The notes beneath the pieces are model-generated. The model was not told where the DNA came from. It did not search any database and saw nothing but the letters and a program-made list of their open reading frames with translations. Position numbers and translations under genes: made by a program. Positions 28,729 to 51,603 of a stretch of DNA of 64,000 nucleotides are shown piece after piece. The DNA comes from Naegleria gruberi. Its lineage: Eukaryota. Location: NCBI GenBank assembly GCA_000004985.1, contig GG738845.1; one strand, 5' to 3'. Position 1 is the stretch's first letter; the number at the start of each line of letters is the position of its first letter.

Positions 28729-28801
28729 CGCCCACCGTGGGGGTCGAACCCACGACCACAAGGTTAAGAGCCTTGCGCTCTACCGACTGAGCTAGACGGG
28801 C
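28729..28801 (-). tRNA. tRNA-Lys (anticodon CTT)
   Basis: The reverse complement reads GCCCGTC TA GCTCAGTCGGTAGAGC G CAAGG CTCTTAA CCTTG TGGTC GTGGG TTCGACC CCCAC GGTGGGC G. It has a cloverleaf with D-loop, T-loop GTTCGA and anticodon loop CT-CTT-AA. A T-rich run follows downstream on the minus strand. Confidence 0.9.
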
Positions 28802-29477: not shown

Positions 29478-30716
29478 TTGCACAAAATAATAAACAATTT
29501 ACTACTAAACAAAGCCTTCACTTCTAAAATTCGCCTATTTTATCCAATTAATCGGACCATTCAATCTATTAACTTTAAAAAAATGTTTAAAAATCAACTC
29601 CTCGTTCAACAATTCATCAAATACTCACAACGTAATCCAACAGTTGTTAGAAACGTTTTGCAATCTAGTATTCTCAGAGCATCATCACATAACAATGTTG
29701 TTTCATCATCAACTAAACAGTATCATACTAATCAAGTAAATAGAGTCTCCGATCGTGAAACTAATTGGGAAAAACAACATCGTGAAAGAATGGCTGCTCA
29801 AGAAAAGTTGTGGAAGGATGCTCCTGAAAAGGTTGTCAGATACTTTGTAGAATTTCAATTTATCAAGAATATGAATAGAAGTAAATTCCTTTTACTTTTA
29901 GTCATTTTGTTTGTTGGATTCTATGGTTATGATAAATTCTCAGGAAGTCACTCAATTGGTTCTGGTATTTATCAAATGATTAACGGACCAAAGAAATCCA
30001 CTACAATGACTAGTGAAGAACTTGCTCAAATGAATGGTGGTAGTGAGGATGATTCTCAAAATACTATTGCTGACAAGCCAGATCCACACAAAGTATTGAT
30101 TGAACGTATTGATCCATCCCGTATGAGAACATTCACATATTTAGATATTGAACATCAAGATTCTCGTTTTGAAAATAATGTAATTAAGGGACGTATAATT
30201 ATTGGATTGTATGATAAGGTTGTTCCTGTTACAAGTTACAATTTTGCCATGATGTGTCAACAAAAATTATTACAAAATACTATTTTCCACAGAGTTATTA
30301 ACAAATTCATGTTACAAGGAGGTGACACTAAACAAGGAACAGGCATGTCAAGTGTCCCATTTATTGGAAACCATGAAGCTAAGGCAGATTTACAAAATCA
30401 AATTAATGAATTAGTTATTAGGGATGCTTTGGGAAATGTTGTTCAATTCAAGGATGAAAACTTTGAATTGACACACTCTGAACCATACTTGTTATGTATG
30501 GCCAACAGAGGTCCAAACACAAATGGTTCTCAATTCTTTATTACAACTGTTAATACTCCTCATTTGGATGGTAAACATGTAGTCTTTGGTAAAGTTTTAC
30601 AAGGTATGGAAATTGTTGACCAATTACAAAAAGTCAGAACTTCCACACGTGACAAACCATTAGATTCAATTAAAATTACAGACTGTGGTATTATTCCAGT
30701 TGATGATTTGATTTAA
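29478..30716 (+). CDS. cyclophilin-type peptidyl-prolyl cis-trans isomerase with long N-terminal extension containing a TM/presequence-like segment
   Basis: HRVINKFMLQGGD, NTNGSQFFITTVNTPHLDGKHVVFGKVLQGMEIV and PLDSIKITDCG are hallmark cyclophilin motifs. The N-terminal 130 aa are basic/hydroxylated with a hydrophobic helix (FLLLLVILFVGFYGY). The true start may be an internal Met near 29583. Confidence 0.85.
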   Translation: MHKIINNLLLNKAFTSKIRLFYPINRTIQSINFKKMFKNQLLVQQFIKYSQRNPTVVRNVLQSSILRASSHNNVVSSSTKQYHTNQVNRVSDRETNWEKQHRERMAAQEKLWKDAPEKVVRYFVEFQFIKNMNRSKFLLLLVILFVGFYGYDKFSGSHSIGSGIYQMINGPKKSTTMTSEELAQMNGGSEDDSQNTIADKPDPHKVLIERIDPSRMRTFTYLDIEHQDSRFENNVIKGRIIIGLYDKVVPVTSYNFAMMCQQKLLQNTIFHRVINKFMLQGGDTKQGTGMSSVPFIGNHEAKADLQNQINELVIRDALGNVVQFKDENFELTHSEPYLLCMANRGPNTNGSQFFITTVNTPHLDGKHVVFGKVLQGMEIVDQLQKVRTSTRDKPLDSIKITDCGIIPVDDLI

Positions 30717-30790: not shown

Positions 30791-33231
30791 ATGTCCAAAG
30801 ATGAGTCAATCATGATGGAAGAAGAAATGTACTCACCTTCCATGACAATTCAACAAGATGAAGAAGATCACTGTACGTACACATTCTCTCCTATTGTTTT
30901 GATCAATTTTGAATGATGATGACAACAGTTAAACAATCAAAGACCAATCCAATAATCAAATCATCATCCCGAATTCAAAATATCCTCCTCTATATATTAT
31001 TAATAGTCTTTATATTATCCTCTTTGATAGGCTTGGTGTTGGCTTTTATTGATTTTTCATTCCCTGATCGGACCAACACTTCCAATCGATTCATTACAAG
31101 TAATAATCAAATAGTTATTGATTTACCTGTGGAAGCATTCATGATGGTCCTATCAATTGGATGTATTTGTATTGCCTTTATGATATTCATGTGGATTGGA
31201 TTGAAAAGGAGAGCCATTAATAATGATCAACAAGAAGGAAAGGAAGAATTGAAACAATTGAAAGATAAATTGGAGGTTGATGCAATGGTTTTGACATTTA
31301 CTAGACAATTTTTCAAGAGGGAAATCAAGTATTTAATTCCATTCATTATCATTGTTGGTTCATTGTTAATTGGATTCGATCAGACGAATTTATTTGTTAC
31401 GAATTCCATTTGTTTTATTTTGGGATGTTTTGCAGTCATTTTGGCAACCTATGTTAATGGTTTAATTTCGAATAGCAATTCAAGTATATATAGTGGAGGG
31501 GAGATAATTGGCTTATCTATTAGGTTTGGAAGTGTGATTGGATTTTTAACACTTGGTATTTCATTGATCATGTTAATTGCTTGCTTTTTACTCTTTTCAA
31601 ATTTTAATGCTGTACTGTCCTTTGTGTTGGGATGTAGTTCCATTTCATTGATTAGTCAATTGAGTGGATCTGTTTTTCAAAAGTCAGCTGATGTAACCAT
31701 GAATTTATTGGGGCAATATATTAATAGTAGTACGACAGGTCAAGAAGAAAATTTAACATCTGACCATAAGAGAAATCCAATTGTTATTGCCAAAATTGTG
31801 GGAGAACATATTGGTGGAATAGTAGCTCACTCTACTGATGTTATTCACTCGTTTGTAGCAATTGTTGTTCTCTCCTCAATTATTGGAAGTCAATACTTTG
31901 GAACGAATGGAGTTTCTCTGCCTCTCTACTTGGTTATTATAAACATTTTGACTTCTATTATTGGAATAGTTGTGGCTGCACTTTCTAATATAATATATCC
32001 ATCACTGCAAACCAACAATGAAAATAATCAAGAGGTTGAAAAGAAAATATCAAAATTGATAGTCAAGTCTGTAGCAATTAGTGGAACAATTAATATGGTA
32101 CTTGTTCTGGCACTCACATTCACTCTCTTTGATGTTATCACACAGGGATGGGCTATATTCGGTTGCTACCTGATTGGATTCTTGAATGGTGGAGTTTTAA
32201 TTCAATTCTTATTCAGATATTATACTTTCCACAGATATCGTCCAGTTCAATACCTGGCTCTCAATTCTACAAGTTGGTATCACTATGTTTCAAGTGGATT
32301 TTCTCATTCAGTTCTATCCCTCATTATTCCAATACTTTCCATTATTGTCAATATCATTCTTTGTAGTGCTCTTTCTACTTTCATGACAGGTGGTAGAGCA
32401 TTTGGATCATTATTTGGGTTGACAATTTCTGGTATTGGCATGTCTGCAAATATAATTTTCTTCCTAGTACTGGATACTATTGTTCCAAATATGAATATTA
32501 GACACTTGGATCAGAAAGAAACCAAATTGAATCCAACTCTTCACACTTACTTTTTAACAAATGGTGGTGTGAATAGAGGTTGTCTTTTAAGTATTACTCT
32601 ATTTTTCTGTTTGAGTGGTTTGCAATTTTTGATGGTCAAGAGTGGCTTGGGTGTTGTAAACATGATAGATCTTTCTACCTTGATTGGCTTGATTGTTGGA
32701 TTGGTACTGCCATTTATTATTGTTGGACTATTGTGGAGCACAATTAATTATTGCTCCATGCAAATGATTAATGAATGTAAAGGTCAATTGAGAGAAATTG
32801 ATGGCCTGTTAGAAGGTAGACTAAATAGTAAACCTAATTATGAGAATATGAACCGATTACAGGGTGTGAAATCTATCAGAGGCGTCATTATGATTACTAG
32901 TATCATTTTTTTAGCACCAACTTTGATAGGGTTAATTGGAAGACAAAAAATGTTGCTTGGATTTTTAGTGAGCTTTTCATTGGTTGGCTATTTTCTTTCA
33001 TTTATAATGTTAAACTTGGGCTTTTCTTGGAATTCTGTGAGAAGAATTGTGGAGCTAAAATATACTGAGCAGTCTCTTCATATGGATATCACAAGACATA
33101 ATACTGTCATTGCGGACACTGTTGGAATTTCATTAAGAGACTCTCTTGCTCCTTCCCTTTTATCTAGTGTTAGAGTTGTTACTCTAATTTGTCTAGTGAT
33201 AGCCCCAACATTGAAATTTCTATATCCATAA
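30791..33231 (+). CDS. divergent membrane H+-translocating pyrophosphatase (M-PPase) family paralog, key catalytic Asp residues substituted (likely non-canonical/inactive)
   Basis: Probable exon 1 30791-30872 (MSKDESIMMEEEMYSPSMTIQQDEEDH), then a GTACGT...CAACAG intron 30873-30928, then exon 2 in frame. About 790 aa with about 16 TM helices. SGSVFQKSADVTMNLLGQ aligns to GGGIYTKAADVGADLVGK, and [25 protein letters not shown] aligns to [25 protein letters not shown]. C-terminal TVIADTVGISLRDSLAPSLLSSVRVVTLICLVIAP aligns to [36 protein letters not shown]. Confidence 0.75.
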
Positions 33232-51512: not shown

Positions 51513-51603
51513 GGTGCGATGGTCGAGTGGTCTAAGACGACACGTTTAGGAGTGATAAATTCCGTGTTCCGCAAGGGCGTGGGTTCAAATCCCACTCGCA
51601 TCA
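51513..51603 (+). tRNA. tRNA-Leu (anticodon TAG) with 11-nt intron at canonical 37/38 position
   Basis: GGTGCGA TG GTC GAGTGGTCTAA GAC G ACACG TTTAGG [agtgataaatt] C CGTGT, then a long variable arm TCCGCAAGGGC, T-arm GTGGG TTCAAAT CCCAC, acceptor TCGCATC and discriminator A, followed by gTTTTTT. The D-loop GAGTGGTCTAAG and anticodon loop TTTAGGC are like known eukaryotic tRNA-Leu(TAG). Confidence 0.85.

Follow-up and report, generated by a model that had tools for sequence, protein, structure and literature searches.

Can a protein that follows the membrane pyrophosphatases along their whole length, and lacks most of the residues by which they hydrolyze pyrophosphate (PPi), still be counted among these enzymes? 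The question is raised by a gene at positions 30,791–33,231 of a 64,000-nucleotide stretch of the Naegleria gruberi contig GG738845.1 (assembly GCA_000004985.1), the whole of which is called the window below. Membrane pyrophosphatases (M-PPases) are regarded as uniformly catalytic and extremely conserved primary ion pumps, and they are drug targets in protozoan parasites. Alignments and a predicted structure identify the Naegleria protein as a full-length member of the M-PPase superfamily, in which the fold appears to be retained and the catalytic and ion-gate residues are mostly gone. We consider it rather probable that the product of this gene is a membrane protein that has the M-PPase fold and no catalytic activity, i.e., a pseudoenzyme, whose likely role would be structural or regulatory.

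The Pfam profile H_PPase (PF03030) matched residues 106–763 of the protein with profile positions 17–645 of 645 (E = 4.8e-73; 247.3 bits, with a gathering cut-off of 29.7). Among the sequences of the PDB, phmmer found M-PPases only, namely the H+-PPase of Vigna radiata (4a01, E = 6e-44), the Na+-PPase of Thermotoga (4av3, E = 6e-39) and the enzyme of Pyrobaculum (8b37, E = 2e-24). AlphaFold2, supplied with an alignment of the query and 22 canonical homologues, gave a model with a mean predicted local distance difference test score (pLDDT) of 78.9 and a predicted template-modelling score (pTM) of 0.82, and low confidence was limited to the N-terminus and to residues 530–539, the latter scoring below 50. 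Foldseek matched this model to all 36 solved M-PPase chains (E = 1e-19 to 1e-27; target-normalised template-modelling scores 0.78–0.86) and to nothing else at significance. The two-ring fold of 16 transmembrane (TM) helices is present in the predicted model, and all 16 hydrophobic helices, the helix-packing Gly and Pro residues and the buried ion pairs are retained.

The functional residue sets, 20 key positions in Ballesteros-Weinstein numbering, were taken from Holmes et al. (2019; PMC6882861). The Vigna numbering was rebuilt from the HMMER alignment and checked against Table 3 of that paper, and the residues of the Naegleria protein were read from an hmmalign alignment of 187 homologues. 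At these positions the canonical string KDDEDDDDDDDNKDKDDKDK becomes KDNSDKEGDD-LRNRDIRDR, and only seven of the 20 are identical: K5.58 (K257), D5.61 (D260), D5.77 (D284), D6.50 (D309), D11.50 (D521, which corresponds to Vigna D500), D16.31 (D735) and D16.39 (D743). Conservative replacements account for five more, D6.39E (E298), K12.50R (R555), K15.64R (R710), K16.38R (R742) and K16.50R (R754). The remaining eight, all Mg/PPi ligands, are lost: D5.65N (N264), E5.76S (S283), D6.35K (K294), D6.43G (G302), N12.43L (L548), D15.61N (N707), D16.35I (I739) and D11.57, which is deleted together with the DNAGGIAE loop. Further changes were found at R5.50Q, K261Q, D6.26H, N692S and K695R and, in the TM12 region, at D12.36P (P541) and D12.39H (H544).

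The 12 acidic residues of the hydrolytic centre comprise four that are kept (D260, D284, D735 and D743), one Asp replaced by Glu (E298) and seven that are lost. D6.43 and D16.39 form the Asp pair that activates the nucleophilic water (PMC6882861); the former is G302 in the Naegleria protein, and the latter is kept as D743. The basic and polar PPi ligands K5.58, K15.64, K16.38 and N12.43 read K257, R710, R742 and L548, so that the charge is kept, with two Lys replaced by Arg, and the Asn is lost. In the ionic gate, D6.50 is kept (D309) and K16.50 is R754; neither 6.53 (H312) nor 6.57 (A316) is a Glu, and position 16.46 is L750. The hydrophobic-gate residue L12.64 is replaced by G569, and the K+/Lys switch position 12.46 is G551. 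As to numbering, PMC6882861 prints the polar ligand as N12.53, and K12.50 = K541 in its Table 3 puts the conserved Asn (Vigna N534) at 12.43; N12.53 is probably a typographical error, and 12.43 is used here.

An earlier sequence-only reading of this locus had described a full-length M-PPase family member with most Mg/PPi-coordinating acidic residues replaced, and both descriptions agree with the profile match, the 4a01 and 4av3 alignments and the residue counts above. The three motif substitutions that it quoted are all in the sequence, including KSADVTMNLLGQ in place of KAADVGADLVGK, and ADTVGISLRDSLAP in place of the third motif. Its statement that the second and third Asp of DVGADLVGK are changed is right for the second, which is Asn; the motif has only two Asp, the first is kept, and the Lys has become Gln. 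Its remark that the TM count is right holds for the 16 canonical helices, to which one extra N-terminal hydrophobic helix has to be added. Scoring of the catalytic positions by profile hidden Markov model (HMM) and structure-sequence alignment, which it had proposed, upheld the losses, with D6.39 conservatively replaced by Glu. It had also named two findings that would speak against it, namely a better gapping that restores the catalytic Asp and Lys residues, and a decaying reading frame. Re-gapping was tried as a rescue of the catalytic residues and rejected, as phmmer, MAFFT and hmmalign yield identical equivalences; no frameshift or stop occurs in the 772 codons. Its suggestion of a pseudoenzyme, a regulator or an altered transporter is thus supported at the level of sequence by the loss of the general base, the DNAGG loop and the gate Glu and by the failed family cut-offs described next.

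The curated NCBIfam cut-offs for M-PPase equivalogs (TIGR01104 and NF001950-61) place the query below all 12 thresholds. Its best score was 237 bits with NF001960 (cut-off 546), and TIGR01104 gave 197 bits (cut-off 652). The canonical eukaryotic M-PPase P0003, used as a control, passed with 728 (NF001960) and 676 (TIGR01104) bits. Four defining features fail, namely the acidic residues of the hydrolytic centre, the Asp pair that serves as general base, both gates (ionic and hydrophobic) and the equivalog cut-offs, and on these grounds the protein should not be filed as an H+/Na+-pyrophosphatase (EC 7.1.3.1/7.2.3.1). The database protein P0001 (“predicted protein [Naegleria gruberi]”, 748 aa), which has 100% identity to the open reading frame (ORF) studied here over 95% of the ORF length, carries the automatic UniRef name “H(+)-exporting diphosphatase”; given the residue losses, this name is very likely an over-annotation.

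The degree of degeneration is extreme within the family, and surprising given how conserved its members are. All 20 key residues are present in 136 of the 187 homologues, the next lowest full-length protein keeps 9/20, and the Naegleria protein is the lowest with 7/20. In 22 canonical enzymes, 123 columns reach a conservation of 95% or more; the Naegleria protein keeps 47 of them, including six of the 16 Asp and one of the eight Lys, and five Lys are replaced by Arg. At 37 conserved polar positions the acidic residues fall from 19 to 8, the basic residues go from 9 to 8, and three new His appear, which takes the net charge from about -10 to 0. The losses are not evenly distributed. In the ion-pair network of the coupling funnel (helices 5, 6, 11, 12 and 16), charge is kept at seven of eight sites, whereas only 4 of the 12 sites that serve solely as Mg/PPi ligands are kept or charge-conserved (Fisher p = 0.028). 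It can be read directly from the alignment that the cage needing 4–5 Mg2+ is gone, that the fold-stabilising buried ion pairs are kept and that the funnel is no longer acidic. Conserved positions outside catalysis disappeared about as frequently as catalytic ones, and the main signal in these alignments is therefore that the catalytic constraint was released and the scaffold retained; no obviously designed new site is seen.

The reading frame itself is that of a native coding gene, and a chance ORF or a contaminant is excluded, because three observations coincide. At the base composition of the window (about 32% G+C; stop probability 7.8% per codon), a random open frame of 772 codons has P ~8e-28. 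The ORF is free of frameshifts and internal stops, and its codon usage correlates with that of the neighbouring long ORFs at r = 0.76 in frame, compared with 0.41 and 0.58 in the other two frames. The third observation is the identity to the N. gruberi database entry P0001.

At the 5' end, more than one gene model can be drawn. When the putative first exon (30791..30872) is read through unspliced, the frame stops at a TGA near 30914; when 30872 is joined to 30929, the frame is preserved and a product of 794 aa results. The sequence-only reading had given this GT..AG intron 55 nt; it measures 56 nt. The gene model of P0001 uses the same donor (30873), an acceptor ending at 31030, i.e., a 158-nt intron, and a later start at the ATG around 30827. 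The acceptors at 30928 and 31030 are both in frame. The short intron, or else a start at the ATG at 30913, is favoured by the sequence over the P0001 model, because the longer intron (30873–31030) would cut away half of an open in-frame hydrophobic helix of 36 residues, and the 5' end of the public gene model is probably incorrect. This helix (residues 13–48) has a hydropathy peak of 3.1 and is present in the AlphaFold2 model at low confidence, and the NCBIfam family profiles begin to align only at about residue 78. It is probably a signal-anchor or a signal peptide, and either an N-in/C-out anchor or a signal peptide would be topologically compatible with the lumenal N-terminus of M-PPases.

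The gene appears to have no close relatives. When 1.84 billion cluster representatives were searched exhaustively with phmmer, 2059 matches and no orthologue were obtained: the next best match after the protein itself has 27% identity and 166 bits, and above 28% identity only the Naegleria protein itself was found. A word-indexed search, a pattern scan of metagenomes and exact-sequence contig look-ups likewise found no orthologue. The median Kimura distance to the homologues is 2.18, about twice the family median of 1.06, which makes this the longest branch in the family. In neighbour joining the query joins other long branches and has no stable sister, and either vertical descent or horizontal gene transfer would fit the tree. 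Almost all of the best-scoring relatives are of the A12.46 (K+-dependent)/E6.53 type, and they include the eukaryotes Anaeramoeba and Ancyromonas and the Discoba genera Diplonema and Hemistasia. These are weak hints, compatible with descent from a eukaryotic K+-dependent enzyme of the E6.53 type. A six-frame HMM scan found no second M-PPase copy in the window. A canonical M-PPase of N. gruberi was not encountered among the best 120 matches for each of the Anaeramoeba and Diplonema seeds, which says nothing about its absence. The gene is best explained as lineage-restricted and as having evolved very fast after the loss of catalytic constraint.

A pseudoenzyme is a homologue of active enzymes that lacks residues essential for catalysis, and this is what the alignments describe here. 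The protein very probably neither hydrolyzes Mg-PPi nor pumps H+ or Na+. By sequence and model, it has kept the scaffold of 16 helices in two rings as well as the salt bridges buried in the coupling funnel, and it has gained one N-terminal helix, probably a signal-anchor. By sequence, it has lost the acidic cage for up to five Mg2+ around PPi, one of the two water-activating Asp and the D11.57 loop, as well as the glutamate that binds the transported H+/Na+ and the key leucine of the hydrophobic gate. The funnel would be roughly neutral instead of strongly acidic, because its basic residues are kept (K257, R555, R710, R711 and R742), K294 is gained and 11 of 19 acidic positions are gone. Any ligand still bound would then presumably be an anion (phosphate, PPi or polyphosphate) that is held directly, without metal. 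The most likely role would be a structural or regulatory one within an endomembrane. M-PPases function as obligate dimers whose subunits communicate with each other (Holmes et al., 2019; PMC6882861), and on this ground a dead protomer paired with an active M-PPase may, speculatively, be put forward as a candidate role. A second candidate, also speculative, would be the binding of anions without metal, or their passive conduction, in an endomembrane. The listed dimer-interface residues are not conserved even among canonical enzymes and are uninformative on heterodimerisation. A more specific proposal, to which we give a low probability, is that the scaffold was repurposed, either as a dead subunit that forms heterodimers with an active M-PPase and adjusts the half-of-the-sites catalytic cycle of that enzyme, or as a metal-independent sensor or conduit of phosphate, pyrophosphate or polyphosphate in the membrane of the acidocalcisome or the contractile vacuole. 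Either repurposing, if true, would be the first non-enzymatic function for this ancient family of primary pumps.

Other explanations of the same residues have to be weighed. The protein could have become a transporter, a channel or a sensor that does not hydrolyze PPi. It might, for example, let cations or anions pass passively along what used to be the funnel, gate and exit channel, or act as a receptor that recognises phosphate or polyphosphate without metal. The retained scaffold and internal charge network would suit this, as would a funnel turned from acidic to neutral or basic, in which Arg in place of Lys is still apt for binding phosphate, and a long intact ORF argues for some retained function. 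The hydrophobic-gate position L12.64 is now Gly, and in the Vigna enzyme mutations near this gate uncouple the enzyme through a wider exit channel (Holmes et al., 2019; PMC6882861). However, no new conserved motif can be defined in a protein without an orthologue, the substitutions resemble general relaxation and not a directed redesign, and no precedent was found in the literature searched; we regard such a transporter or receptor as unlikely. An enzyme that is highly divergent and still active, as pyrophosphatase or ion pump with a reduced or rearranged ligand set, is the most doubtful of the readings, and we give it very little credence. It could point to K5.58, D5.61, D5.77, D6.50, D11.50, D16.31 and D16.39, all kept, to the Glu at D6.39 and to the automatic name in the database, but it would have to work with Gly in place of the general base D6.43, without D5.65, E5.76, D6.35, D11.57, N12.43, D15.61, D16.35 and the gate Glu, and below every curated equivalog threshold. 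In plant and bacterial enzymes, single substitutions at several such positions reportedly abolish activity, which also counts against it.

Decay is the other alternative to a maintained pseudoenzyme. The gene could be a functionless relic, a duplicated or once-transferred M-PPase gene that drifts and has not yet acquired a disabling mutation. A single-species orphan without an orthologue in 1.84e9 representatives, on the longest branch of the family, with catalytic and non-catalytic conserved sites lost at similar rates, is what such drift might leave. But an identity of about 26% corresponds to well over one substitution per site, and neutral drift at 32% G+C would not leave 772 codons open (P ~1e-27); the 16 hydrophobic helices, the helix-packing Gly and Pro and the buried ion pairs are preserved, and the codon usage is still gene-like. 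A relic is for these reasons improbable in our view. With moderate confidence we propose that the gene is maintained, because divergence of this extent is incompatible with an unselected ORF that stays open while 16 helices and the buried ion pairs survive.

Several points weigh against the pseudoenzyme proposed here. The basic residues that contact PPi are still represented by one K and two R, and four of the Asp residues, D5.61, D5.77, D16.31 and D16.39, persist, so that some weak or altered chemistry on phosphate could in principle remain. D533, which lies in a poorly modelled loop, is a conceivable stand-in for D11.57 and forms the only loophole in the alignment. The AlphaFold2 fold is not independent evidence, as the model was guided by an alignment of canonical M-PPases. 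Conserved non-catalytic positions are kept at 45 of 100 and are lost about as often as the catalytic ones, a rate which fits general relaxation and would be expected of a slowly dying gene as well. The public data searched yielded no orthologue from which purifying selection could be measured as dN/dS. A canonical partner M-PPase in N. gruberi is a candidate only, and the weight of a single-species orphan is limited.

The features of the locus are collected in the table.

Table. Features of the M-PPase-like gene, with positions in the window and the basis of each assignment
Feature	Positions	Strand	Details	Basis
Putative first exon (optional)	30791..30872	+	ATG + 27 codons + 1 nt, MSKDESIMMEEEMYSPSMTIQQDEEDH; ATG at 30913 is the alternative start	ATG at 30791, GT donor at 30873
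Putative intron, 56 nt	30873..30928	+	GTACGT...ACAG	GT..AG and in-frame joining, from sequence
Continuous ORF	30913..33231	+	772 aa + TAA; divergent M-PPase homologue	ORF list, PF03030, 4a01, 4av3, identity to P0001
Extra N-terminal hydrophobic helix	30949..31056	+	Residues 13–48, K/R before it, ahead of canonical TM1	Profile start, model, hydropathy
TM5 motif	31657..31716	+	QLSGSVFQKSADVTMNLLGQ; R5.50 to Q249, K257 and D260 kept, D5.65 to N264, K261 to Q268	Alignments
TM5-6 loop	31717..31776	+	YINSSTTGQEENLTSDHKRN; 8-residue insertion, E5.76 to S283, D5.77 kept (D284), D6.26 to H285, R/N kept	Alignments
TM6 motif	31789..31860	+	D6.35 to K294, D6.39 to E298, D6.43 to G302, D309 kept, H312, A316	Alignments
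TM11 end, loop and TM12	32467..32580	+	D521 kept, DNAGGIAE deleted, P541, H544, L548, G551, R555	Alignments
TM15 motif	33019..33054	+	GFSWNSVRRIVE; D15.61 to N707, N692 to S708, K15.64 to R710, K695 to R711, E698 kept	Alignments
TM16 motif	33106..33174	+	VIADTVGISLRDSLAPSLLSSVR; D735 and D743 kept, D16.35 to I739, K16.38 to R742, 16.46 = L750, K16.50 to R754	Alignments

The genes that flank the locus, a cyclophilin and a prolyl oligopeptidase, are unrelated eukaryotic genes and give no functional hint. The upstream neighbour (29478–30716, plus strand) encodes a cyclophilin-type peptidyl-prolyl isomerase (Pfam E = 1e-45) that is extended at its N-terminus by about 230 residues, among them the hydrophobic stretch FLLLLVILFVGFYGY, and its stop codon lies about 75 bp from the ATG at 30791. 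Elsewhere in the window, ARAGORN predicted a tRNA-Lys(CTT) at 28729–28801 (minus strand) and a 91-nt tRNA-like element at 51513–51603 (plus strand), whose four-base anticodon was left undetermined and which may represent a tRNA with an intron or else a spurious call.

If the proposed reading is true, the family would have its first candidate for a pseudoenzyme, a full-length M-PPase with its fold and with a dismantled Mg-PPi site and ion gate. The protein would also be a natural experiment that separates the residues of folding from those of catalysis, since the ion pairs of the funnel survive and the ligands do not, and a warning that automatic names such as that of P0001 over-annotate. How Naegleria regulates PPi-driven acidification could possibly be approached from this protein as well. 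The literature searched, supplements included, contained no account of a catalytically inactive M-PPase or of any M-PPase from Naegleria, and this absence is limited to that literature; it accords with the view of the sequence-only reading that the state is not well characterised for the family. No dead M-PPase is known to have been characterised.

Degenerate members of the family do exist among public metagenomes and metagenome-assembled genomes (MAGs), and the literature searched yielded nothing that describes them. Of the 187 homologues, about 20 are missing between 3 and 11 of the 20 key residues, with D6.43G and Lys-to-Arg changes recurring (P0154, P0176, P0129, P0174, P0177, P0185, P0104, P0060 and P0046; loci L001-L005). 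P0154 shares D5.65N, D6.35K, D6.43G, K15.64R and K16.38R with the Naegleria protein, and D6.43G is also found in P0129, P0185 and P0046. At least three, P0129, P0154 and P0176, are bacterial by name or gene context, P0176 coming from a Bacteroidota MAG in a cluster of 5. P0129, which has 11/20 key residues, occurs on at least 24 contigs; in three loci it lies directly downstream of a pyruvate-phosphate dikinase gene and an HD-domain gene and adjoins dnaG and a gene for a sigma-70-type sigma factor. These homologues (P0154, P0176, P0129, P0185 and P0174) are about 24–27% identical to the Naegleria protein, no closer than the canonical enzymes are. They keep 9–16 of the 20 sites, compared with 7 in the Naegleria protein, and are far less divergent, P0154 reaching 518 bits over 553 aa. 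Because of this distance, the shared losses are read from the alignments as recurrent independent, i.e., convergent, loss and not as the mark of one family, and the scattered bacterial cases hint that such loss happens repeatedly.

The closest known systems are the K+-dependent M-PPases (PF03030, TC 3.A.10), represented by the VrH+-PPase of Vigna radiata (4A01) and the TmNa+-PPase of Thermotoga maritima (4AV3/5LZQ). The Naegleria protein is homologous to them over the full length, with the same predicted 16-helix fold; it shares the buried charge network K5.58, D6.50, D11.50 and D16.39, and positions 12.50 and 16.38 are still basic. It differs from them at 13 of 20 key residues, lacks the acidic Mg cage, the DNAGG loop and the gate Glu, has lost one general-base Asp, carries Gly for the gate Leu and has an extra N-terminal helix, and its bit scores are about one third of those of a canonical M-PPase. 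Pseudoenzymes in general are relatives of enzymes or transport ATPases that have lost catalysis and serve as regulators or scaffolds. Like them, the Naegleria protein is the homologue of an enzyme, with the fold apparently kept, the catalytic residues lost and the gene intact.

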